From Eubacteriales bacterium (GTDB taxonomy: Bacteria; Bacillota; Clostridia; Christensenellales; Aristaeellaceae): 64,000 nt of DNA. The DNA lies in the NCBI GenBank assembly GCA_031556335.1, contig JAVBTE010000032.1, forward strand, positions 92 through 64,091, written 5' to 3'. The position numbers and the translations under genes are program-made. Shown here in pieces: positions 19,701 to 54,909 of this stretch; position 1 is the first letter of the stretch, and every line of letters begins with the position of its first letter. The notes under the pieces were generated by a model. It was given only the letters and a program-made list of their open reading frames with translations, made no database searches and was not told where the DNA came from.

Positions 19701-19785
19701 ATAATGGTTGTTTTGTGGTTTTCTGCGCATTGCGAAAGTGAGGCGCATACGCCTACATATTTGAAACTGCAAGGAGTGTTCTGGC

Positions 19786-26625: not shown

Positions 26626-27522
26626 ATGAAAAGGAAAACCGCGTGGGTCCGCTGGTATCGGAGGGCGCTGGTGCTGCTGGTGGCTCTGGCGGTCTGCTTT
26701 GTGGTGGCCACGGCCGAGCCGGCCACTCCCGATGCGGCTCAGCCGCAAAGCCCCTCCGCACTGTTTTTGAATGTGGGCAAAGCGGATGCGGCGCTGTATT
26801 TTTTAAGTGGACAGGTGTATCTGATTGACACGGGCACCAAAGACTCGGCCCCGGCCCTTTTGAAGGGGCTGGAAACCTATGGGATTAAGAAGCTGCATGG
26901 CGTTTTCATCACCCACACGGACAAGGACCACGTGGGCGGGCTGAAAACCCTGCTGGAGTCCGGAATGGCGGTGGACCAGCTGTACGCCCCCCGGTTTCAT
27001 AGCGAAAAAAGCGACGAAAAACACCCGGTGTACAAGGCGGCCCAGGAGTTTGACCTGCCCATGACCTGGCTTCAAGCGGGAGACGGGGTGGTTGTGGACG
27101 AGGGCACAAGCTTTACCGTGCTGGGGCCGCTGACGAAGGACCCGGAAAACGAGAACAATAACTCGCTGGTGCTGGATTTGCAGACCCCGGAGGGCAATAT
27201 GCTGCTGGTGGGGGACATGGAGTTTGCCGAGGAGGAGGCGCTGCTGCGGGCCGGGGCCATTCCCAAGGCGACCGTTTTGAAGGTGGGGCACCATGGGGAG
27301 GACGACGCCTCCGGCGTGGCTTTCTTATCCACGGTCAAGCCCCAGTGGGCGGTTATCTCCACCAGCACCGAGGAAGAAAAGGATACCCCAGACCCCAAGG
27401 TGATGGGGCTTTTGTGGCAGGTGAAGGCGAACGTGGCCGTTACCCAGGAGGCCACCTGCGGCATTTTGGTCACCCTTGCGGCAGGGACGGCCACGGCCCA
27501 AAAGATCGATTACAAGCCCTAG
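26626..27522 (+). CDS. membrane-anchored or secreted MBL-fold hydrolase (ComEC C-terminal-domain-like)
   Basis: MKRKTAWVRWYRRALVLLVALAVCFVVA signal/anchor, ITHTDKDHVGGL, VLKVGHHGEDDAS. Confidence 0.75.
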   Translation: MKRKTAWVRWYRRALVLLVALAVCFVVATAEPATPDAAQPQSPSALFLNVGKADAALYFLSGQVYLIDTGTKDSAPALLKGLETYGIKKLHGVFITHTDKDHVGGLKTLLESGMAVDQLYAPRFHSEKSDEKHPVYKAAQEFDLPMTWLQAGDGVVVDEGTSFTVLGPLTKDPENENNNSLVLDLQTPEGNMLLVGDMEFAEEEALLRAGAIPKATVLKVGHHGEDDASGVAFLSTVKPQWAVISTSTEEEKDTPDPKVMGLLWQVKANVAVTQEATCGILVTLAAGTATAQKIDYKP

Positions 27523-27631
27523 GCGCACATTTCCTCCGTTCAGTCATAGGATGGTTTGAAGCCCTGAAAGGCTTCAGATGGCAGCCCGGATTCCCGGGAG
27601 GGCGGCCTGCCACCCTTTCCATGAAGGAGGA

Positions 27632-28318
27632 ATGATGATGCAACATCCGCCATGCGGTTGTGGGGCCTGCGGCCAGCATAAACCGATGGACCCCTGTGTA
27701 CATCCCCAGCCCCCAAAACCGCCCAGGCCGCCTAAACCCCCTGTGGCCCAGGGCATTTTGGTGGACAAAATCATCGCTTGCGAGCGAAAGTTCATCCCCT
27801 CCCTGTGCACGCAGCTTCAGGTGGAGGGCCTTCCCTGCTGCGCGCAGCCGCCCTTTGTGCTGACCATGGTACAACAAAGCAGCGCCCAACCTTGGTGGAC
27901 GCCGCTGGAAAGCAAAGGGCCCTATGCCCGGATCTGTATGCGGGTGTGCATTCCCGTTTGCTGTCAGGTGAAGGATGCCTGCGGGCAGTTCTACGCGGCC
28001 ACCGCCGTGGTGGAAGTGGATGCGTGCCTTTCTCCCGCCTGCCCGCCCTCGGACTGGTGGAGGCACCGCATTGTGATCGTGCCCTGCGTGCGGCTGTGCT
28101 CGCCGCCGGTGTGCTCGGAAGACTGCTGCTTCCCGGTGCAGCTGGAGGTGTCTTTGGAACTGTACCTGACCAAGCCGGAGCCCTGCATGATGCGCGCGCC
28201 CGCGCCGCCCTGCCCCGATCTGCCCCTGTACCCCCAACCCTGCAAGCCGCCTACTCCACCTTGTTGGCAACAATGCCCAGGAGGCCCGGACCCGTGTGGA
28301 TGGCCAAGACAGGGCTGA
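27632..28318 (+). CDS. hypothetical Cys/Pro-rich protein (26 Cys in about 228 aa)
   Basis: GAAGGAGG lies immediately before three in-frame ATGs (27632/27635/27638). Codon usage resembles neighbouring genes (CTG, GTG, CCC, TGC). No family recognised. The 3' end overlaps degV by 68 nt. Confidence 0.5.
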   Translation: MMMQHPPCGCGACGQHKPMDPCVHPQPPKPPRPPKPPVAQGILVDKIIACERKFIPSLCTQLQVEGLPCCAQPPFVLTMVQQSSAQPWWTPLESKGPYARICMRVCIPVCCQVKDACGQFYAATAVVEVDACLSPACPPSDWWRHRIVIVPCVRLCSPPVCSEDCCFPVQLEVSLELYLTKPEPCMMRAPAPPCPDLPLYPQPCKPPTPPCWQQCPGGPDPCGWPRQG

Positions 28319-29108
28319 CGGGGGAGATAAACGAATCCGCCACGTTCAGGGTTTCTTTCAGCCTTTCCAGCAGTTGTTGGGCCTCCTCCAGGGCGCGCCC
28401 ATGAACAACGGAAAGGCTGATTTTTGCTTGGCCGAATTTTTTCGCGGCCTCTTGCGCCATGGTTTCCACGGCGGATTTATAGCCCCGGGCCTTGGCCAGG
28501 GTTTCGTAAATGCCGTCCGGGTTGATAAAAATGATGGGCTTGATCTGCAAAATGCTGCCCACAACGCCTTCTACCAGGCCGATGCGGCCGCCCTTGCGCA
28601 AAAATTCCAGCGTGCGGATCACAAACATGCCCAGCTGGGAGCTGCGCACTTCCATGGCCTTTTGGATGGCCTCGTCCGGGGACAGGCCGCCGTCCAGCGC
28701 TCGGGCCGCGGCCAACACCATCAGGCCCAGGCCGGTGGACAGGGTTTTGCTATCCACCACCCGGATGTTCATCCGCGCCCCAAAGTCCTCCGCAATCATG
28801 CGCACCATGTTGTAGGTGCCGCTGAGGCCGGAGGAGATGCACAGGTGAACCACATCCGTAACGCCTTCCGCCGCCAGGGATTCGTACAGCAAAGATACGT
28901 CCTCCGGCAAGGGCAGGCTGGTTTTGGGCAGTTCCTGCTCCAAAAGGGCATACAGCTCGTCCTGGCCGATGTCGATCCGGTCACGGTATTCCGCGTTCTG
29001 GCACACCACCCGCAGGGAGATCATGCGGATTTGATGGGCCGCCAGTTGTTCATCGCTTAAGTCGCAGGAGGAATCCGTGATGATCACCGTTTTGCGTTCC
29101 TTGTCCAT
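28251..29108 (-). CDS. DegV family fatty-acid-binding protein
   Basis: VIITDSSCDLSDEQL...LCISSGLSGTYN...LRKGGRIG. Confidence 0.9.
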   Translation of the reverse strand: MDKERKTVIITDSSCDLSDEQLAAHQIRMISLRVVCQNAEYRDRIDIGQDELYALLEQELPKTSLPLPEDVSLLYESLAAEGVTDVVHLCISSGLSGTYNMVRMIAEDFGARMNIRVVDSKTLSTGLGLMVLAAARALDGGLSPDEAIQKAMEVRSSQLGMFVIRTLEFLRKGGRIGLVEGVVGSILQIKPIIFINPDGIYETLAKARGYKSAVETMAQEAAKKFGQAKISLSVVHGRALEEAQQLLERLKETLNVADSFISPVSPVLAIHTGPGLLGIVANKVE

Positions 29109-29298: not shown

Positions 29299-29352
29299 TA
29301 AAATTGGTTTGTTGTGCATATCAGCGTTGATTTTGAAGGCGGAGGCGAAGGA

Positions 29353-32300
29353 ATGATGGTCTTCACCGCAAATATTCCATTCGGGAAAAGCAGGGCTCTT
29401 TCCAAGGCGTGCGCGTTGCTTGTGGCGCTTTGCATGCTGATGGGGGCGTTCGCTTTTGCGTCCGCGGAAGGGGTCACCACCCTGACCGTGGGGCTGAAGG
29501 GCGTTTCTTCCGACGACGCGCAGGTTTGGCGTTCCCTGTCCATCAGCGGCAGATTTGACGTGCAAACCCCCGACGGCCGCGTGCTGGGACGGGTGCGGGC
29601 CAACCCTTCCGATAAGGAAGAGGCGGCCGGAGAGAGCGACACCCTTGTCATTTCCGACGCCTCCCTGAGGACCGTGACCCTGGTGCCTGTGGCGGAGGAC
29701 TTTGCGGAGGGCTTTGCCTGCCAGGGTAACACCGAGGTGGAGATCAAGCCCGGCGAAAATAACATGGCGACGGTGCTGGCCTATGCGAAGCAGGGCCTTT
29801 TCACCCTGCGGGACACCCTGGAAAACGGCAAGCCCGCCCCCGGCGGGGAATATGTGGTGCTGGATGAGACCGGCGCCATGATGCTCAGCGTTTTGACGGA
29901 CGACCAGGGCCGCTATGCCTCCGCCAAGGCTTTGCCCAGCGGGCAGTATCAGCTGGTACAGATGCGGGCCGCCGAGGGTGCGGTTCCAAACGGCCAGGGC
30001 ACGCCTTTCACCATTCAGACCTATTTTGGCAACGAAACGGACATCGCTGCGGTGACGGTTTCAAGCAAACCGGCGCCCAGCCTGGGCGGCGAGGGCCTGA
30101 AAGCGCTGGAAACACAGCCCTTTGAGCAGGGCGACGACGAGGATACCAACGCTTATTTTTCAAAGCTTGTGGTTACAACGGGCAGCGACGGAACCAACAC
30201 CGTGCCTCTGAAAGATTTTACGGTCACGCTTTTGCCCACGGCCCTGAAGGACAAGGTGGGAGAAAGCCGCGCCCCCGGGGTGGCCGTGGTGGTGGAAAGC
30301 GTCACCCCGCGCATTGAAACGGAAGGCGTCGCGGTGAAAGCCCAGGGGCTGAACAGCCAGGGCGTTCCGGTGGGGCAGCCCAAAACCGGCGCTTCCGGGG
30401 AGACCCTGGTGCTGGAGGACGCGGTGGGCGCGGCCATCACCTATGTGGACGCGGCCACCGGGGAAGCCGTGGTGCCGGAAGGCTTCAAGGGCGGCGACAT
30501 CACCGCTTCGCTTGTGTACCTGCCCATCACCGCGTCGCCCACGGAGTACGCGCCCAGCGAAGCCCAGATTCGCGCGGAGGTCAGTTGCAGCGTTCAGTAT
30601 CCCGACCGGGACGGCAACAGCCTGGTGACCGCCAAATCGGAAGCGGAACCGCTTCCCATCGATCTGGTGATTGACGATGGCAAACTGGACGTTGCCTACT
30701 CCGCCGAAGCCTTGCTAAACGGCGCGGGTGGCGGCAGCGTTCGCCTCACCTTGCAGGATATGGAAAACGGCGGCCTGCCCCAGAATACGGCTCTGGCCGT
30801 GGTGTTGCCTCAGGGGGCCAGGGCGGTGGATACCGGCCTTGGGGAGGGCCTTCGGCTGATTCGCACGGCGGAGCAGGACATGGTGGCGTTCTCCTTGGAT
30901 CAGCTTTCCAAAAGCCAGGTGGAGATCCCCATCAAGGCCGGGCGGATGAGCAGCCTGGAGCTGCTTGTGCTGGACCCCCAGGGATTTCCCAAAACCCTGG
31001 ACAATCCGGAAGGCGCGTCCATCAACGCGCCGGAGCACCGGAAAAGCCCGCTGCTGGACACCCTGCTGGGCCAGGCCCAGGGGCTGTACGCCGTTGTTCC
31101 CTGTACCCTTGCCAGCAGCCTGGACCTGGGCGAAGCCGCGCCCTGCGACAAGCAGCTGCTGACGGGCACCATGTATGAGGACGGCGACCAGAGCGGCTCC
31201 CGCACCCAGGACGAGCCCGCCGCAGTGAACCGGGGCGTGCTGCTTCGGGGGGATATTTCGGGCTGCTATTATGGCGCGGTGACGGACGAGGACGGCAAAT
31301 ACGCCATTTTTGGACAGGCGGACGAGGCGGACGCGTCCGGCATGCTGATTGCGGTGATGCCGGACAACACCATGAGCGTGGGCGCCCACCAAACGGGCAA
31401 GGTGGAGCGCAAGGGCATCGCCATTCCCGATACCGACTATCCCATCTCTTATTTGAAAATGGGCATGATTCGCGGGCAGGTGGCCCTGGACGAAGGCCAG
31501 CCCTTTGCCGGCGCCACGCTGACGCTGAGTTTTAACGGCCAGGATTTGGCCACGGTGGAAACCAGTTCCACGGGCGCATACAGCTTTGGCGGGCTTTCCA
31601 CTGGCAATTTCCGCCTGAGCGTAAGCATTCCGAAGGAGCAGGATTTGGCCCTGGTGGCCAAAGAGAACGCCAAGCAGGAAAACAACTGGCAAATGGTGCT
31701 GGAAGAGGTGCCCCTGGTGTATGGCCAGGAAGCGGAAATCCCCTTCCAGGTGGCGTCTTTGGGCGCGGTGGAAGGCACGCTGACCCGGGGGGGCCAGCCC
31801 GCAAAGGACATGGCCGTGACCCTGAAAACCCCCAAGGGCGAAACGCTTTCGACAAAGGCGGACGAAAAAGGCGGCTATCGGTTTGAAGGGCTGCAGGCGG
31901 GCCAGTATGAACTGTCCCTGGAACTGACGGGGAACCTGTCGGTGGTGGCCGTGGACGGCCAACCCGCCGAGGCCCGCAGCGGCTACCAAGCGACGCTGGC
32001 CTTGGCTGCCGGCGCGACGGTGGAAAGCGCCATTGCCCTGGAGGAGACCGCGTCCATCACCGGGCGCATCAGCCAGCTGGGCGGGGGCCAGGACATTGCC
32101 GTGGCCTCCCTGAACGTGCAGCAAAGCGTAAAGACCCAGGATGACGGCAGCTTTGCCTTTGAGGGCCTGCCCGCCGGGGATTATACCGTATACGCCCCCC
32201 TGCCGGAGGGGAAGGACCTGCCGGGGGATTCCCCCTGGAAGGTGACCCAGCGGGGGGACATGATGTGGACCTCCGTGGCCCTGGAGGCGGGCAGCGCCTT

Positions 32301-35300
32301 TGCGTTGCCCGAGGCGGAAACCATCGAGATGACCAGCATTGAGGGGGTCGCCTATCAGGACGTGAACGGCGACCTGAGCTACCAGCAGGGCGAGCAGCTG
32401 ATGAGCGGCGTGACCGTGGCACTGCAAAAAAAGCAGGGCGATTCCTGGACGGACATTGCCACAGCCCAAACCAACGATTATGGCGTGTTTTGTTTCCGCA
32501 ATCTGGAGGAGGGCGTATACCGCGTTTCTTCCATGGTGAACACCCAGGGGTTCTACGTGGCGGCGGTGGGCGGCAAAAGCCTGACCATTGGCGACAGCGG
32601 CGTGATGACCACCGGAGAGATTCGCCTGAGCACCGGAAAGCGACTGACCGGGGTGGCGGACGTAGCCCTGGGCATGCCGGGGCGGCTGCACTTTGCGGCT
32701 TTCAGCGACAGCAACGAAAACGGCGCCCGGGGCGAGTATGAGCGGCCCATCGCCGGGGTGCTGGTGGAGGTGCTGGAGGCGGACGGCGAGACCGCCATGG
32801 CCTCCGGAACCACAAACACCACGGGCGAGGTGGTGTTGGAGGGCATCCGTCCCGGCCAGCACGCGCTGCGGGTATCCCTGCCGGACGGCTATATGTTCAG
32901 CAAAAAGGGCGAAGGCAGCGGCCTTGGGGTAAGCTGCGTGGAGGGCGAGGAAGCCACGGCGGTGAGCGAGCCCTTCAATTTCACGGGCGGCCAGGCCGTG
33001 GAGGCCGGGGTGGGCGCCGTTCCGGTGGGCTCCTTTTCCGGCAAGGTATGGAGCGACGACGACAACAACGGCATCATGGACCCGCAGGAGGCCGGCGTGG
33101 CCGGGGTCACCCTGAGCCTTGCGGGGGAAAAAACCAAAAGCGAGTATACCCTCGTGACGGACGCCACGGGGGAGTACCGGTTTTCTAGGTTGCGCAACGA
33201 TACCTATCACCTGACCGCTCAGTTGCCCGACGGGATGCTGTTTGCCAGGTATTCCCTGGAGGGGGGCGACAAACGGTCGGTTTTTACGGTGGAGGGCACC
33301 AAGGCCACCAGGGATTTTCCGGTGGTGGGCGCGGCGGATGTAATGAACAAAAACGTGGGCGTCATTCTGAAAGGCGTTGTCGAGGGCATCGCCTTTTTGG
33401 ATGAGAATTACAACGGCGTCTATGACGAGGGCGAAAAGGGCTACAAAAACGTGACGCTGGAATTGATCAAGGCCAGCAACAGCAAATCCATGGGCAAGAC
33501 CGTGACCGACGAGAACGGGGCCTTTCGGTTTGAAAACCTGCGGGGCGGGGAATACCGCCTGCGGGCTGTTTTGCCGGACGACGGCAGCATCTTTACCCTG
33601 GTGCCGGATGCCCGGGAAGGGCAAGTGAACCTGTTTGCCCAGCGGGAAGGCCGCCGGGAAAACACCATCGCGCCCATTACCATCGGCAACGGCGGCAGCG
33701 CCCATGCGGTGGTGGGCGTGGCCCGGGGCGCGACCCTCAAGGGCACCGTGTTTTTGGACCCCAACTACGACGGCATTATGAAAGGGAAGGAAAAGAAAGC
33801 CTCCGGCGTAAAGGTGGAGCTGGTGGACAGCCATGGGCGGCTGGCGGCGGCGGACACCACCAACGCCAACGGCACCTATCTACTGGAAGGCGTGATGCCG
33901 GGCGAGTATGTGCTGCGGGTGCTTCGCAAGGACAACTACGCGTTTACCCGCCTGCGTCCCGACGAAAACGGCGGCAGCTGGATTAAAAAGCTGGAAGGTG
34001 ACTATGGCGTGACCGATCCCATTCCCGTGGTGATGGGCCAGGAGATTGACGGCGTCAACGCGGGCATGCTGCCCTCCTCCACCGTCACAGGCGTGCTGTT
34101 TGACGACCTGAACGACAACGGCCTGCGAGATGAGGGCGAAATGGGCATGGAGGACGCGAAGGCCCGCCTGGTGTCCAAGGACGCGGAGATCGACCTGACG
34201 GCGGCGGTGAACGCCGACGGCGCCTATTTCTTTGACGGCGTTATGCCTGGCAAGTATACCATCACCTACCTTTTGCCCCAAAACGTGGAGATGGCCAAGG
34301 TGGTGAAGGACGGCAACACCCTGAAACATCAGGGCCTGGAAAACACCACCGATTCCTTCTCCGTGGAAATGGGCGTGGAAGACCAGCGGCCCCTGGTGGG
34401 CGCGGTGCGCCTGGGCACCTTTGAGGGCGTTTTGTTCCACGACGCCAACGCCAACGGGGAGCGGGACGAGGCAGAGGAACCCCTCGGCGGCATGGAAATC
34501 ACCCTGACCCCGGACAAGAAGGACCTGGAGATCGCCACGGCCAAAGCCGACAAGGACGGCCACTTCAGCGTGACGAACCTGCGCCCTGCCGGATATCAGC
34601 TGGGCCTGAAGCTTCCCGATGGATATATTTTCAGCGCGGACATCCAGGCCTCCAGCCTGACCATGGACACCGTGCAGGAGCAGAAGCTGACCCTTCCCTG
34701 GAAAGCGCTGATCAATCGCCAGGAAAACCAGGTGGGTGCGGTGAAGCCCGCCACGGTGACCGGCTACGCCTGGCTGGATGAGAACCGGGACGGCCAACAG
34801 GGCAGCGAGGAAAGGCTGCTGAGCGGCCTCGGGTTTGAACTGGTGAACGAGGCGGACGGCAAGGTGGCGAAGCGGGGGAACTCGGCGGAGGACGGAAAAA
34901 TGACCTTCGCGGCCGTGCGGCCCGGTACCTATACCGTGCGGTTCCGCATTCCCAGCCAGTCGGAGCCTGCCGGGGAGAGCGACGCCACCCTGCTGCCCGA
35001 AAGCGGCATGATGGTGCAAAAGGGCATCGTGGTGCCGGAAGGCGGCAGCTTTGGCGAGATTCACGCCGGCCTTGTATGCAAAACCAGCATCGCCGGCGCC
35101 CTCACCCTGGAGGAAAACGGCGCTGCCGACAAGCTGGAAGGCCTGACTGTGAAGCTGTACGAAAGCGGGCAGGACGACCCGGTGCAAACCCAAAAGACGG
35201 GCGCAAACGGCGGCTATCGCTTTGACGGCCTGTGGCCCGGCCAGTACCGCGTGGAAGCGGAGCTGCCCGCGGGGATGATCTTTGTGAAACCCGGCGACCC

Positions 35301-35853
35301 CAACTACCCGGAGGGCGCTTCCATCATAACGGCTACCGTGGGCGGCGTGGGAACCAGCAGCGAGTTTGAGCTGCGCATGGCCCAGCACCGCCTTGCCGAG
35401 AACATCATCTATATCCGGCCCGCCAAGCTGGGCGACATTGCCTGGCTGGACCTGAACAAGAACGGCCTTGTGGACGGCGGCGAGCCCATGATTCCGGGCG
35501 TGACCGTGACGCTGATGAAGGACGGCAAGGCCGTTGCAGAAACCACCACCGACGTCTACGGCTACTACCTCTTCCCGGACGTGTACCCGGGCGAGTATAC
35601 CTTGCAGGTGAAAGCCTATCCGGAGCTGAGCATCACAAAGCCGGTGCCGGAGCTGCGCATGATCAGCAGCTGCCTTACCAGCGGCGACGGAAACAGCGCC
35701 GCCAGCGAGTCTTTCACCGTGGCAAGCGGCACCACCCATTTTGATTTTGACTTGGGCTACGTGCTGCTGGACGGCCAAACCATGCCAAGCGCCATCGTCG
35801 CCCCGCCCCAGCAGGACTGGACCGGCGCTTATGTGTCGGGCTCGGGGAACTAG
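29353..35853 (+). CDS. giant secreted repeat protein with many SdrD-B-like / Cna-B (prealbumin-fold) domains and no recognisable anchor
   Basis: Signal peptide MMVFTANIPFGKSRALSKACALLVALCMLMGAFAFASAEG. At least 15 units of about 100 aa carry the signature D-x-N-x-N/D-G-x-x-D...GV.V.L...G......TD..G.Y.F..L..G.Y. Confidence 0.85.
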   Translation: MMVFTANIPFGKSRALSKACALLVALCMLMGAFAFASAEGVTTLTVGLKGVSSDDAQVWRSLSISGRFDVQTPDGRVLGRVRANPSDKEEAAGESDTLVISDASLRTVTLVPVAEDFAEGFACQGNTEVEIKPGENNMATVLAYAKQGLFTLRDTLENGKPAPGGEYVVLDETGAMMLSVLTDDQGRYASAKALPSGQYQLVQMRAAEGAVPNGQGTPFTIQTYFGNETDIAAVTVSSKPAPSLGGEGLKALETQPFEQGDDEDTNAYFSKLVVTTGSDGTNTVPLKDFTVTLLPTALKDKVGESRAPGVAVVVESVTPRIETEGVAVKAQGLNSQGVPVGQPKTGASGETLVLEDAVGAAITYVDAATGEAVVPEGFKGGDITASLVYLPITASPTEYAPSEAQIRAEVSCSVQYPDRDGNSLVTAKSEAEPLPIDLVIDDGKLDVAYSAEALLNGAGGGSVRLTLQDMENGGLPQNTALAVVLPQGARAVDTGLGEGLRLIRTAEQDMVAFSLDQLSKSQVEIPIKAGRMSSLELLVLDPQGFPKTLDNPEGASINAPEHRKSPLLDTLLGQAQGLYAVVPCTLASSLDLGEAAPCDKQLLTGTMYEDGDQSGSRTQDEPAAVNRGVLLRGDISGCYYGAVTDEDGKYAIFGQADEADASGMLIAVMPDNTMSVGAHQTGKVERKGIAIPDTDYPISYLKMGMIRGQVALDEGQPFAGATLTLSFNGQDLATVETSSTGAYSFGGLSTGNFRLSVSIPKEQDLALVAKENAKQENNWQMVLEEVPLVYGQEAEIPFQVASLGAVEGTLTRGGQPAKDMAVTLKTPKGETLSTKADEKGGYRFEGLQAGQYELSLELTGNLSVVAVDGQPAEARSGYQATLALAAGATVESAIALEETASITGRISQLGGGQDIAVASLNVQQSVKTQDDGSFAFEGLPAGDYTVYAPLPEGKDLPGDSPWKVTQRGDMMWTSVALEAGSAFALPEAETIEMTSIEGVAYQDVNGDLSYQQGEQLMSGVTVALQKKQGDSWTDIATAQTNDYGVFCFRNLEEGVYRVSSMVNTQGFYVAAVGGKSLTIGDSGVMTTGEIRLSTGKRLTGVADVALGMPGRLHFAAFSDSNENGARGEYERPIAGVLVEVLEADGETAMASGTTNTTGEVVLEGIRPGQHALRVSLPDGYMFSKKGEGSGLGVSCVEGEEATAVSEPFNFTGGQAVEAGVGAVPVGSFSGKVWSDDDNNGIMDPQEAGVAGVTLSLAGEKTKSEYTLVTDATGEYRFSRLRNDTYHLTAQLPDGMLFARYSLEGGDKRSVFTVEGTKATRDFPVVGAADVMNKNVGVILKGVVEGIAFLDENYNGVYDEGEKGYKNVTLELIKASNSKSMGKTVTDENGAFRFENLRGGEYRLRAVLPDDGSIFTLVPDAREGQVNLFAQREGRRENTIAPITIGNGGSAHAVVGVARGATLKGTVFLDPNYDGIMKGKEKKASGVKVELVDSHGRLAAADTTNANGTYLLEGVMPGEYVLRVLRKDNYAFTRLRPDENGGSWIKKLEGDYGVTDPIPVVMGQEIDGVNAGMLPSSTVTGVLFDDLNDNGLRDEGEMGMEDAKARLVSKDAEIDLTAAVNADGAYFFDGVMPGKYTITYLLPQNVEMAKVVKDGNTLKHQGLENTTDSFSVEMGVEDQRPLVGAVRLGTFEGVLFHDANANGERDEAEEPLGGMEITLTPDKKDLEIATAKADKDGHFSVTNLRPAGYQLGLKLPDGYIFSADIQASSLTMDTVQEQKLTLPWKALINRQENQVGAVKPATVTGYAWLDENRDGQQGSEERLLSGLGFELVNEADGKVAKRGNSAEDGKMTFAAVRPGTYTVRFRIPSQSEPAGESDATLLPESGMMVQKGIVVPEGGSFGEIHAGLVCKTSIAGALTLEENGAADKLEGLTVKLYESGQDDPVQTQKTGANGGYRFDGLWPGQYRVEAELPAGMIFVKPGDPNYPEGASIITATVGGVGTSSEFELRMAQHRLAENIIYIRPAKLGDIAWLDLNKNGLVDGGEPMIPGVTVTLMKDGKAVAETTTDVYGYYLFPDVYPGEYTLQVKAYPELSITKPVPELRMISSCLTSGDGNSAASESFTVASGTTHFDFDLGYVLLDGQTMPSAIVAPPQQDWTGAYVSGSGN

Positions 35854-36125: not shown

Positions 36126-38482
36126 TCCGGGGCCTCGGAGCGGTGTCGGTCCACCATGAGCAAAGTGAGGATGGTCATGTCGTCCCTGGGGGTGCCGCCG
36201 CTGGCCAGCAGGGCGGCGCGGAGCAGCGCGTCGGCCATGCGCTGGGGCTGAATGTAGAGGTTGTCTAAAATGGCGCGTTCCATTTGCTCTGCGTCGCAAA
36301 GCACGTCGGCCACGCCGTCGCTCATCACGATGAGGATGTCCCCGCTGTGCATGCGAAAGCTTTGGCTGGTGGGCTGCACTTCCTCCAAAATGCCCAGGGG
36401 CAGGGAGGAGCCGTGAACCTCTTTCAGATAATTGCCGCGCACCACCCAGGAGGCGCAGGCCCCCAGCTTTTCGCTCTGCACCTCGCCGGACCACAGGCTG
36501 AGGTCAAAAAGATCCACGGTGGCGAAGCGTTCCTCGTCCATGACGGAAAGGATCATGCCGTTTACCGCGCTGATGGCCTGCTTGCGGGTATAGCCGGCCT
36601 CCAGGCACAGCAGCATCAGCTCCAGGGTTTTGTTGCTGATTTGGTGGGCCCCGCCGCCGTGGCCCATGCCGTCGCTGAGCAACAGCAGAAAGCGTCCGCC
36701 CTGGCACTGCTTGGCGGCCATGGCGTCGCCGCTGACCGCCGCTTCCTCCCAGGCGCTGGGCTGCCCCGCGCAAAGGGTGGCCACGCCAAGCTCCACGCTG
36801 TACAGGGGCAGTTCTTCCAGCTCGATGCGGTTTTTGATGGTGCGCACAGCGCCCAGGGACAGGCCGGAATCCTGCTCCAGATAGCGCAGCAGCTTTTCAG
36901 GCTTGTTGCCTATGGGCCGCAGGGCGTCTACCTCAATGGCGGCCTGCAGGTGCCCGTCCACCCGGCGGGCATAGCATAGGGTGCCGGGAAAGCGGATGTC
37001 CCGCATGGCTTTGTTGATTTGGTAGGCGGAGTGCAAATCGCTGAGGGTTTCCCCGCAGGTGAGGGTGCGAATTTCCGAGATGGCCCCGGCCATGGCCTCC
37101 AGGTGGGTGACGGTCATATCCCGCTCGAAGCGGGCTTTGGCCTTGGCGGCCAGAACAGACTGCCGGCTTTTCAGCAGTTGCGCCAGGGCGGCGGGAACGG
37201 CCTGCAACCGGACACAGGGGCAGTCGTGGATTTTCGCCAGGATTTCATGGGGCGTTTCGTGGGCCAGGGCAATGCGCATCAGCTCCGCCAGGGTCAGCTC
37301 GGTGCGCTGCTGGTTGCGGCTCCAGCAAAGTTCCCGGTCGGGACAGTCCACGCACAGCACGTTGCCAAGCTCGGCCGGGGTGGGCGCTCCGGTCTGAATG
37401 GGCGCCACGGCAGGCAGGGCGGCGGCCATGCCCCGCATGGCGCTTTCCCAGCGCAAAAGCCGCTGCTGCACAAACAGGCCCTCCATGTTGCGGGCAGCGG
37501 GGGCCGGGCCTACCCCCAGGGACCGCAGCCGTTCGGTGACCCGGTCGCCGGTGAAGGGAAAGATCAGGCAGCCGAGAAGCACCGTCACATGGGGCAGGGA
37601 AGGGGAGGCCAGCGGGGTCAGGTAGAAGGCGAACATGTGGGCGGCCAGATAGCACAGGCCGGAAAGCCAGCGTTTTTTTTGCCCGGAAACCAGCCCGGCA
37701 AGGAACCCGCCCAGGGCCAGGTGGATGGTGAGGCGGCCGTCGTGGCCGCACAGGGCCAACGTCAGCCCGCACAGCAGCCCCCCCGCCGCCCCGGCCATGC
37801 CCCCCAGGGCATAGGAAAACATCAGCGTGCAAACTACGGCCAGCAGCTGGCCCAGGTTGAGGGTGGCAATGCGCAAATAGCCCAGGCCGGAAAGCAAAGT
37901 GAGCAAAAAGAGAAGCACGCAGGCTTTATCCTCCAGGGTCAGCATGGGTCGGGCGTCCTTCAAAAGGCGAAGTCCCCGCTGATAGGCAAGGGTCAGCCCC
38001 ATGCACAGGGGCACGGCGGCGCAAGAAAGCAGAATGAAAAGGCTGTTGCCGGAAAACAGCGAGACGACGGCCCGGGGCATCATGGAAAGGCCGGCCAGCA
38101 GGATGAGGCCCACCGGGGTTTTGGGGCGCTGCAACAGGCAAAAGCTCCAAATGGCGAAGCAGCCCGCATATTGCCAAATGTCCAGGGAAATGCCCCAAAT
38201 CAGCCGCAACACAAAGGACGCCACCAGCCCCAGCAGGGGGAAGAGCGCGTCCAGACCCCGGGTTTCCCGGGCCAGCAAAAAGGCCGCGGCGCAGGGCGAG
38301 GGCACGCCGAACCAGGTGACAAAGGTAGACAGAAAGGCGCACAGGGAAACGCCCACAGGACGGCTGGAGACCTGGGCGAACGCGCACAGAAATTCCCACA
38401 GTTTTCGCCAGCCCGAAGGATGGTATTCTTTTCTGGCCACCGCCGGATTCGGCCCCATGCCATGCTCAGTGCCGATTTGCAT
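36101..38482 (-). CDS. spoIIE: stage II sporulation protein E (PP2C phosphatase with a polytopic membrane domain)
   Basis: About 10 N-terminal hydrophobic segments, then the PP2C region LLLLSDGMGHGGGAHQISNKTLE...GDILIVMSDGVADV. The start is uncertain: ATG at 38482 chosen, ATG at 38458 and TTG at 38584 are possible. Confidence 0.85.
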   Translation of the reverse strand: MQIGTEHGMGPNPAVARKEYHPSGWRKLWEFLCAFAQVSSRPVGVSLCAFLSTFVTWFGVPSPCAAAFLLARETRGLDALFPLLGLVASFVLRLIWGISLDIWQYAGCFAIWSFCLLQRPKTPVGLILLAGLSMMPRAVVSLFSGNSLFILLSCAAVPLCMGLTLAYQRGLRLLKDARPMLTLEDKACVLLFLLTLLSGLGYLRIATLNLGQLLAVVCTLMFSYALGGMAGAAGGLLCGLTLALCGHDGRLTIHLALGGFLAGLVSGQKKRWLSGLCYLAAHMFAFYLTPLASPSLPHVTVLLGCLIFPFTGDRVTERLRSLGVGPAPAARNMEGLFVQQRLLRWESAMRGMAAALPAVAPIQTGAPTPAELGNVLCVDCPDRELCWSRNQQRTELTLAELMRIALAHETPHEILAKIHDCPCVRLQAVPAALAQLLKSRQSVLAAKAKARFERDMTVTHLEAMAGAISEIRTLTCGETLSDLHSAYQINKAMRDIRFPGTLCYARRVDGHLQAAIEVDALRPIGNKPEKLLRYLEQDSGLSLGAVRTIKNRIELEELPLYSVELGVATLCAGQPSAWEEAAVSGDAMAAKQCQGGRFLLLLSDGMGHGGGAHQISNKTLELMLLCLEAGYTRKQAISAVNGMILSVMDEERFATVDLFDLSLWSGEVQSEKLGACASWVVRGNYLKEVHGSSLPLGILEEVQPTSQSFRMHSGDILIVMSDGVADVLCDAEQMERAILDNLYIQPQRMADALLRAALLASGGTPRDDMTILTLLMVDRHRSEAPERGEGREP

Positions 38483-53994: not shown

Positions 53995-54909
53995 ATGACG
54001 TGGCAAGAGACCGTGAACTTTTTTTCCCTGTGCCTGCCCAAAAACCTTGGCAAGGCCATCGGGGCCCTGCCCGCCGGGGAGCTGCGGGAAATTCGCGTTC
54101 GGGCCGGGCGGCCCGCCCAGCTGATGGTGGGCAGGGAGGAAAAGACCATTGGGGCCCTGGTGCCCTCGCCGGAACAGGTGAACGCCATTGCGGAGTCCCT
54201 ATCTGAACATGCATTGTACGCCCGGGCGGAGGAAACCCGCCAGGGGTTTGTCACACTGAGGGGCGGGCACCGCATGGGCCTTTGCGGCCGGGTCATCGCC
54301 CAGGGGGGCACGGTGCGGTCCCTTCGGGAGATCAGCTCCCTGTGCATTCGGGTGGCGGGCCAGTGGACAGGCACTGCCGACCCGCTGGCGGCCCGCCTGA
54401 AAAGCGACGCGGGCCGGCCGCAAAGCCTGCTGGTGATCGGCCTGCCGGGCACGGGAAAAACCACGCTGCTTCGGGACGCCTGCCGCCAGCTTTCCGACGG
54501 AGGCCTGCGGATGTGCGTGTCCGATGAGCGCAGCGAGCTGGCCGCAGTGTACCGGGGCATGCCGCAGCTGGACGTGGGACGGAACACGGATATCCTGGAC
54601 GGCGCGGGCAAGGAGCTGGGCCTTCGGTGGCTGCTTCGGGCCATGGCCCCGGACGCGCTGGTCACCGATGAGATCGGCGGGCTGGCGGACGCCCAGGCGG
54701 TGCTGGAAGCGGCCCAAAGCGGGGTGGGGGTTTTGACCAGCGTGCACGGCAGGGACATTGAAAGCGTCATGGACCGGGGCGCGCTGTACCACCTGATGCG
54801 GCGCCATGTGTTTTCGCTGTTCGCCGTGATGGATGAAACCCGCACGGGGACGGTGGCGGCCCTGTATGACGGCCGCATGCAGCCTTTGCAAATGGAGGCG
54901 AAAGCCTGA
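53995..54909 (+). CDS. spoIIIAA: stage III sporulation protein AA (AAA+ ATPase)
   Basis: Walker A GLPGTGKTTLLRD, Walker B LVTDEIG. First gene of a collinear spoIIIA operon. Confidence 0.85.
   Translation: MTWQETVNFFSLCLPKNLGKAIGALPAGELREIRVRAGRPAQLMVGREEKTIGALVPSPEQVNAIAESLSEHALYARAEETRQGFVTLRGGHRMGLCGRVIAQGGTVRSLREISSLCIRVAGQWTGTADPLAARLKSDAGRPQSLLVIGLPGTGKTTLLRDACRQLSDGGLRMCVSDERSELAAVYRGMPQLDVGRNTDILDGAGKELGLRWLLRAMAPDALVTDEIGGLADAQAVLEAAQSGVGVLTSVHGRDIESVMDRGALYHLMRRHVFSLFAVMDETRTGTVAALYDGRMQPLQMEAKA

Follow-up and report, generated by a model that had tools for sequence, protein, structure and literature searches.

A 64,000-nucleotide (nt) stretch of DNA from an uncultured member of the Eubacteriales (GenBank assembly GCA_031556335.1, contig JAVBTE010000032.1, positions 92 to 64,091 of the forward strand), referred to here in its whole length as the window, contains on its + strand an open reading frame at 27632-28318 that encodes a protein of 228 amino acids with 26 cysteines (11.4%) and 45 prolines (19.7%). 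This Cys/Pro-rich open reading frame is a real gene under purifying selection, and its product is probably a structural component of the outer layers of the spore, whether coat, crust or exosporium. An earlier reading of the DNA, made from the letters alone (the sequence-only reading), had proposed a Cys-rich protein of the coat or exosporium type from a family that it did not recognize. Conservation of the gene, a sigma-K-type promoter and co-occurrence with SpoIVA support this proposal; the timing of expression, the location on the spore, self-assembly and disulfide cross-linking are what we infer from these data. The reading best supported by the sequence is that of an unannotated, lineage-specific, late mother-cell gene for a Cys-rich spore-envelope protein.

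A conserved family of Cys/Pro-rich proteins

The gene is present in a single copy in its genome (G000), a 2.7-Mb metagenome-assembled genome (MAG) that is 81% complete. The Cys content of the protein ranks third among the 2,200 open reading frames of at least 80 amino acids in this genome, the median being 1.35%, and the cysteines form CxC, CC and CxxxC clusters. No transmembrane segment or signal peptide was found in the protein, the top 19-residue Kyte-Doolittle mean being 1.14. On the 26 cysteines, the lack of a signal peptide or transmembrane segment and the peptide blocks that it quoted from the translation, the sequence-only reading was accurate. The ribosome-binding site and the triple ATG that it described are also present, the Shine-Dalgarno sequence GAAGGAGG at 27623-27630 (+) and the three ATG codons at 27632-27640, but the ATG directly after the ribosome-binding site is probably not the start. 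The GGAGG core ends 1 nt before the first ATG (27632) and 7 nt before the third (27638), and the orthologues start with MQH..., 5-8 nt after AGGAGG or GGAGG. The third ATG is therefore most likely the true start, giving a protein of 226 amino acids and a coding sequence of 27638-28318 (+), stop codon included. Residues are numbered here from the first ATG.

A search of 5.8 billion proteins yielded 55 homologues with 36-77% identity, all of them unnamed or called "hypothetical protein" and none with a Pfam domain. The family profile matched 165 clusters among 1.84 billion cluster representatives. The gene was found in 47 species-level genomes, all from uncultured Clostridia, which include Candidatus Limiplasma, Egerieenecus, Ventricola and MAGs labelled Eubacteriales or Christensenellales. 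The ratio of nonsynonymous to synonymous substitution rates (dN/dS, Nei-Gojobori) was 0.09-0.34 in 16 orthologue pairs, loci without an overlapping gene included. Since homologues exist, keep the frame and show dN/dS well below 1, the open reading frame is a real gene. GC-rich DNA does yield many long spurious open frames, several of them across this very region, and the frame could in principle have arisen by chance or as a shadow of degV, the convergent gene with which it overlaps. This idea is refuted by conservation and carries practically no weight: the frame is kept in the homologues of 47 species, also where degV is not next door, and the gene changes its context independently of degV.

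As the sequence-only reading had found the family unfamiliar, so did the databases: neither Pfam (E up to 1) nor NCBIfam gave a family for the protein. For 56 diverse relatives, compared with Pfam at E up to 10, the only matches were scattered and due to chance, and the Spore-coat_CotZ model was matched neither by the protein (E up to 1) nor by the 56 relatives (E up to 10). No longer, fused relatives turned up in the search, which is weak evidence.

The family members consist of a variable N-terminal Cys/Pro arm, a beta-rich core and a near-invariant C-terminal motif, with an extra Cys/Pro tail in some lineages. The arm ranges from about 10 to more than 100 amino acids of Cys/Pro-rich repeats; in the window it comprises residues 1-38 (27632-27745, +) and has a low predicted order. 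The all-beta core domain, as predicted, spans residues 40-190 (27749-28201, +). It is followed by the signature motif C-P-D/E-L-P-L-Y-P-x-P, residues 194-203 (28211-28240, +). C194, P195, P198, Y200 and P201 are invariant in 33 sequences; with 56 diverse sequences, P198 and P201 are still invariant, and conservation of C194 and Y200 is 90% or more. The PLYP signature is retained even in the remotest members. The protein ends with the tail ...PPCWQQCPGGPDPCGWPRQG, residues 204-228 (28241-28315, +), which is mostly antisense to the DegV C-terminus.

The 56 diverse members have a median of 20 cysteines (10.8%; range 8-45), and only two Cys columns, C194 and one in the N-terminal part, are conserved in at least 90% of them. 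The other cysteines are each found in 10-50% of the members. Because the Cys content is kept while most positions drift, selection maintains a high number of cysteines and not particular sites, a pattern that fits bulk disulfide cross-linking better than a metal centre with fixed ligands.

A sigma-K-type promoter

Upstream of the gene lies the -35 element GCAC (27526-27529, +), whose AC at 27528-27529 is followed by a 16-nt spacer and the -10 element CATAGGATG (27546-27554, +), which is of the sigma-E/K type CATAnnnT. In 46 orthologue upstream regions the CATA motif was found in 44, as CATAGGATG or CATAnnCTG, and all 44 have AC at a distance of 16 or 17 nt. The common pattern is AC-N16/17-CATAnnnT, usually gCAC-N16-gCATAGGATG. 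It is also kept at loci where the gene has other neighbours, namely glpA-like genes, yajC and thrS, or esterase and ATP-grasp genes. At the most distant loci the motif is only 28-34 nt before the start codon, and because of this short distance a promoter suits better than a leader element.

Sigma-K promoters have AC at -35 and sigma-E promoters have ATA (PMC3789822). The consensus for sigma-K, AC at -35, a spacer of 16-17 nt and a CATAnnnTA-like -10 element (PMC3789822), is matched in the window. The sequence-only reading had named a sigma-E/sigma-K-type promoter as something to look for upstream, and what is present there is, on sequence grounds, a conserved promoter of the sigma-K type. Sigma-K is preferred to sigma-E mainly because gCAC is conserved among the orthologues. 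The spoIVA gene, which is a sigma-E gene in model organisms, offers a comparison within the same genome. Its promoter, TCATAG-N16-CATATCTT, lies about 40-70 nt upstream of the start at 19708 (G000:C35) and is the ATA (sigma-E) version; the two mother-cell promoter classes can therefore be told apart in this organism.

The predicted leader starts with a 7-bp stem-loop, TGAAGCC-CTGAAA-GGCTTCA (27558-27577, +), read in the sequence. An inverted repeat at the same place in the orthologues covaries, with compensatory changes in 7 of 14 predicted pairs, and may be a 5' mRNA-stabilizing hairpin or the site of a regulator. When the leaders of the orthologous loci L001-L036 (27555-27637 in the window) were compared, the repeat GCTTGACGG...CCGTCAAGC was seen in most orthologues directly after the -10 element, with complementarity reaching into that element (GGATGGC/GCCATCC). 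A conserved CCATCCTT stands after the repeat, upstream of the Shine-Dalgarno sequence. An Rfam search of 27450-28400 gave no RNA family.

The pattern AC-N16/17-CATA-N3-T[AG] occurs 91 times in the genome. Of these occurrences 41 are intergenic, and 23 are intergenic and gene-proximal, with a gene of the same strand beginning 10-200 nt downstream; when the CATA core was permuted in eleven ways as a control, 0-11 such matches were obtained. The genes behind the motif include those for a BclA-type collagen-repeat protein, aspartate-semialdehyde dehydrogenase (asd), aspartokinase, rubrerythrin, an Amidase_6 protein, a protein with SH3 and peptidoglycan-binding domains, and four products without a family. 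The collagen-triple-helix repeat protein (L061, G000:C158:5833-6909) is BclA/Scl-like (Pfam Collagen, E 2.6e-32) and is a candidate for an exosporium "hairy nap" protein. Aspartate-semialdehyde dehydrogenase (L055, G000:C89:14092-15174) and aspartokinase (L051, G000:C46:499-1818) feed dipicolinate synthesis, and the motif upstream of each would fit a mother-cell supply of dipicolinate precursors. The same promoter type precedes two further Cys-rich open reading frames, L056 (G000:C105:15465-16325, 9.1% Cys) and L066 (G000:C207:4114-4845, 7.8% Cys), which belong to the four without a family in Pfam or NCBIfam and are likely to be spore-envelope candidates as well. Together with the Cys/Pro-rich gene, they place three of the genome's ten most Cys-rich open reading frames among the 22 motif genes, where 0.1 would be expected (hypergeometric P about 1e-4). 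Judged by the genes that follow it, the motif marks late-sporulation genes in this genome. L056 and L066 (P0203 and P0204) were also considered as paralogues of the Cys/Pro-rich gene and rejected, the hhalign probabilities being 0.1% and 2.6%.

Association with sporulation

The genome encodes SpoIVA (728 bits), an intact SigE and a SipL-like protein with three DUF3794 repeats. Within the window, where the sequence-only reading had reported spoIIE and spoIIIA, a spoIIE-like gene at 36167-38047 (-) and a spoIIIAA-like gene at 54088-54870 (+) are indeed present, both scoring below the curated cut-offs. The YabG protease is regarded as part of the sporulation signature; its gene (TIGR02855) was not found in this genome, which at 81% completeness may reflect a gap.

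The distribution of the gene follows that of sporulation. In 121 genomes from the same GTDB family, the gene occurs in 37 and SpoIVA, the coat morphogenetic ATPase, in 77. SpoIVA is found in 35 of the 37 carriers, the two exceptions being 91% and 72% complete, and the gene is found in 2 of the 44 SpoIVA-negative genomes (odds ratio 17.5). Within genus g165, one genome (G375) has both genes and another (G315, 97% complete) has neither. In a sample drawn at the level of the order, SpoIVA is present in all 23 carriers and strong matches are confined to the gene's own family, where exactly the same 3 of 14 genomes have both genes. About half of the SpoIVA-positive relatives manage without the gene, so it is not essential for sporulation. 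From this distribution the gene appears to be lineage-specific, dispensable for sporulation as such and lost together with sporulation, as expected of an outer-layer component. High Cys content without an export signal and restriction to spore formers, by which the functional class was judged, are both found here.

Predicted structure and known spore proteins

AlphaFold2 predicted the same topology from two alignments, with mean pLDDT values of 84.9 and 86.2. The core, residues 40-190, is mostly above 90 and the N-terminal arm lies at 54-78. The predicted core has eight strands, two of them longer than 20 residues, and one short helix. Foldseek found no neighbour in the PDB (best E 0.03, TM at most 0.15), and a search of PDB sequences with the family profile gave only a bacterioferritin at E 1.1, which is noise. 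Prediction of a homodimer from two copies of residues 36-228 scored 0.01, a value that says nothing either way about self-assembly.

The closest functional parallels are the Cys-rich proteins that build the outer layers of other spores. CsxA and CsxC form the exosporium basal layer and the parasporal lattice in C. sporogenes and in C. botulinum of group I. CsxA has 25 cysteines and its arrays dissolve only on boiling in 2 M dithiothreitol (PMC7333573). The protein described here resembles these two in being small, beta-rich by prediction and presumably made in the cytoplasm, with about 24-25 cysteines, and it shares with them a predicted spore-specific nature and the presence of a BclA-like collagen protein in the same organism. 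It differs from CsxA in having no detectable sequence or profile similarity, in its size (about 25 kDa against 33 kDa), and in its Pro/Cys arms and PLYP motif, features that the cited papers do not mention for CsxA. Its gene is not clustered with collagen-like or glycosyltransferase genes, and self-assembly is attributed to it by analogy.

CdeC and CdeM, exosporium morphogenetic proteins of C. difficile, contain 9% and 8.7% Cys (PMC6101409), compared with 11.4% here. They too lack domains conserved by sequence and are restricted to a lineage, and they are proposed to cross-link the outermost layer of the spore by disulfides. They show no sequence similarity to the present family; CdeC has conserved Cys motifs and repeats, whereas the positions drift here, and the organisms are Peptostreptococcaceae as against Christensenellales-like uncultured gut Clostridia. 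CotY, CotZ and ExsY, from the B. subtilis crust (CotY/CotZ) and the B. cereus group exosporium (ExsY/CotY), are late mother-cell, Cys-rich proteins whose self-assembly gives hexagonal arrays locked by disulfides (summarised in PMC7333573). The likeness to them lies in the Cys content and the late mother-cell expression predicted here; the difference lies in the missing Pfam match and in the restriction of the present family, as far as it was found, to Clostridia. The SPOCS (DUF3794) proteins SipL, SpoVID and CotE are likewise beta-rich spore-envelope proteins, and a SipL-like protein is encoded in the same genome, but they are Cys-poor organizers with an hhalign probability of 0.06% against the family.

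Proposed role in the spore envelope

In the mechanism that we propose, RNA polymerase with sigma-K would transcribe the Cys/Pro-rich gene by itself late in the mother cell. Having no export signal, the protein would be synthesized in the cytoplasm of the mother cell and deposited on the developing spore. There the compact beta-rich core would pack with its own copies or with other coat proteins. Disulfides formed by the approximately 20-26 cysteines, many of which lie in the flexible Cys/Pro arms at the two ends, would lock the layer, as in CsxA, CdeC/CdeM and CotY/ExsY. The invariant CP(D/E)LPLYPxP motif would be a likely docking or cross-linking site.

Several observations weigh against this assignment to the spore envelope. 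Its basis is the sequence of an uncultured, incomplete MAG, and the Pfam, NCBIfam, profile and fold comparisons connected the protein with no proven coat protein, either by sequence or by fold. The -10 element by itself does not separate sigma-E from sigma-K, the AC at -35 is two bases long, and the start of transcription is a prediction. In the genome scan a -35 of AA yields as many gene-proximal matches as AC, so that the scan alone cannot discriminate between sigma factors. Kinship among the genomes inflates the SpoIVA co-occurrence statistic and its P value, and the many SpoIVA-positive genomes of the family that lack the gene count on the same side. The assembly also contains only the N-terminal half of sigK (SigK model positions 2-115), at L070:1426-1860 on the - strand (G000:C119:6173-6514), where the open reading frame departs from the SigK model beyond ...AARCIEK and ends 25 codons further on. 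A C-terminal half was not found in the 81%-complete MAG; the half gene could be a skin-like interruption or an assembly gap. A convergent gene for a sugar-binding protein lies next to it.

Two alternatives would remove the protein from the spore's structure. It could be a sporulation-specific redox or metal protein of the mother cell or the spore, such as a metallothionein-like sink for Zn or Cu, a thiol buffer or a small Fe-S protein. The richness in cysteines and their CxC, CC and CxxxC clusters, the rubrerythrin gene behind the same promoter type, and the two well-conserved Cys columns are all compatible with this, but we consider it unlikely. Metal centres need fixed ligands and only 2 of the approximately 26 Cys positions are conserved, no Pfam or NCBIfam metal-binding family was matched in 56 members, the confidently predicted 150-residue beta core does not look like the coil of a metallothionein, and the variable Pro/Cys-rich arms resemble structural proteins. 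A vegetative cytoplasmic or surface protein with no spore role, preceded by some other conserved element, is less probable still and would come as a surprise. It would be in keeping with the housekeeping neighbours (uppP, an MBL-fold gene and degV), with the absence of the gene from half of the SpoIVA-positive relatives and with the inverted repeat, which overlaps the -10 region and could be an operator. It does not account for a two-block motif with a fixed 16/17-nt spacing kept in unrelated contexts, for the same motif in front of BclA-like and dipicolinate-pathway genes, or for the near absence of the gene from genomes without SpoIVA (2 of 44), and a vegetative surface protein would need the signal peptide that is missing here. 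The precursor of a ribosomally synthesized and post-translationally modified peptide was also considered and rejected, the protein being too long and having a folded core, as was a secreted adhesin, there being no signal peptide.

A further proposal concerns ancestry and is compatible with a structural role in the spore envelope: the protein could be a divergent CsxA or Cys-rich SPOCS (DUF3794-fold) member, forming interlocked trimers that tile a lattice. CsxA, CsxC and CdeC have been described as Cys-rich proteins of the SPOCS/DUF3794 fold that form interlocked trimers, and the Cys-rich proteins of Bacillus as having a fold quite unlike the clostridial ones (bioRxiv 10.64898/2026.09.03.749163). 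In the ESM Atlas the nearest named clusters include those labelled PF27077 CsxA (58% of members), PF07029 CryBP1 and DUF8305, with scores of 0.91-0.94 and 182-204 of 256 features shared, a similarity that comes from a language model alone and leaves the link unconfirmed. Set against this, no family member matched any model beyond chance at E up to 10 in the Pfam release used, which has no PF27077 model, hhalign gave the 0.06% probability mentioned above against a DUF3794/SipL alignment built for this work, and PF12673 matches only the SipL-like gene in the genome. The Atlas itself cautions that a family is probably wrong when five or fewer of the ten best matches share it. A search by sequence found no SPOCS structure in the PDB, so the Foldseek result does not bear on this fold. 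Descent from the CsxA/SPOCS proteins is thus a possibility that we regard with some doubt.

The locus and the overlap with degV

The gene is followed by degV (28251-29108, -), a convergent housekeeping gene of the fatty-acid-binding DegV family (Pfam DegV PF02645, E 2.9e-79). About 25 of the closest genomes share the arrangement uppP (-), the MBL-fold gene (+), the Cys/Pro-rich gene (+) and degV (-). In the more distant loci, where genes were called by our own open-reading-frame calls with a GC3-GC2 score, degV is not adjacent: the gene is preceded by glpA-like oxidoreductase genes, a DUF1667 gene and yajC and followed by thrS, or in other genomes adjoins esterase and ATP-grasp genes. Coat genes are typically single-gene units among housekeeping genes, and by its changing contexts this gene behaves as just such an autonomous unit. 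Further along the window, downstream of degV, a gene for a 2,179-amino-acid repeat protein (29314-35853, +) is syntenic in many relatives, with an N-terminal identity of 28-45% in at least 10 loci.

The 3' ends of the Cys/Pro-rich gene and degV overlap by 68 nt (28251-28318, both strands), exactly as the sequence-only reading had stated, and this segment is shared by the two reading frames. In 21 genomes with a full-length degV downstream the overlap measures 53-74 nt, and 68-74 nt in nearly all; an apparent overlap of 128 nt at one locus (L002) is probably an artefact of the stop-codon search. Only loci in which the gene overlaps degV have the full 25-residue tail ...PPCWPQCPxxPxPCGWPxxG. Where there is no degV downstream, or where degV lies next to the gene but does not overlap it (L017), the protein stops a few residues beyond PLYPxP, and a short ...GWP(R/A)R end is retained in five loci without the overlap. 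The Gly and Pro codons of the DegV C-terminus read as Pro, Gly, Cys and Trp on the opposite strand. Read most simply, this pattern means that the frame was extended into the antisense of the conserved DegV C-terminus (...HTGPGLLG...), giving rise to the tail, and that the tail was then retained.

Codon position 3 of the Cys/Pro-rich gene falls on position 2 of degV and the reverse, which is the most mutually constraining phase. For the 22 degV codons within the overlap, synonymous third-position diversity was 0.26 in the 21 overlap genomes, the lowest of all 22-codon windows of degV (median 0.41, 5th percentile 0.34). These codons seem to be constrained twice over, as would be expected if selection acts on the tail as well. 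Because 29 of 323 convergent gene pairs in the genome overlap by at least 50 nt, by crude gene calls that include dubious short open reading frames, the overlap with degV is notable but not unique in this GC-rich genome. No evidence was seen of functional coupling between the two genes via the overlap; late antisense transcription into degV is possible. Terminator-like hairpins are present at 28415-28433 (+), within degV and about 100 nt past the stop of the Cys/Pro-rich gene, and at 27906-27878 (-), within the Cys/Pro-rich gene and downstream of degV.

Implications

For many strict anaerobes of the gut, spores are the means of withstanding oxygen and of passing from host to host. To our knowledge, detailed molecular descriptions of the outer spore layers exist for only a few species of Bacillus and Clostridium, and because coat proteins evolve very fast, homology searches seldom recover them across lineages. 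The Cys/Pro-rich gene is a concrete outer-layer candidate in abundant uncultured gut Clostridia related to Candidatus Limiplasma, and the conserved AC-N16/17-CATA promoter offers a practical means to list the rest of the late mother-cell regulon. The degV-overlapping tail would show, in a natural case, how overprinting on the end of a conserved gene gives rise to a segment of protein.

The Cys/Pro-rich family is most likely new and unannotated, its functional kind, a Cys-rich spore building block, being already known. The current picture of spore assembly would stay unchanged, and a known design principle would be extended to a new lineage. A bolder version, which we put forward only tentatively, is that the family has an independent new fold, confined to Christensenellales-like gut Clostridia and unrelated to CsxA/SPOCS and CotY/ExsY, with a functional C-terminal arm in one sub-lineage that derives from the antisense of degV as about 70 nt of stable dual coding. 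If true, it would be a further separate invention of the "cysteine-rich tile" strategy.

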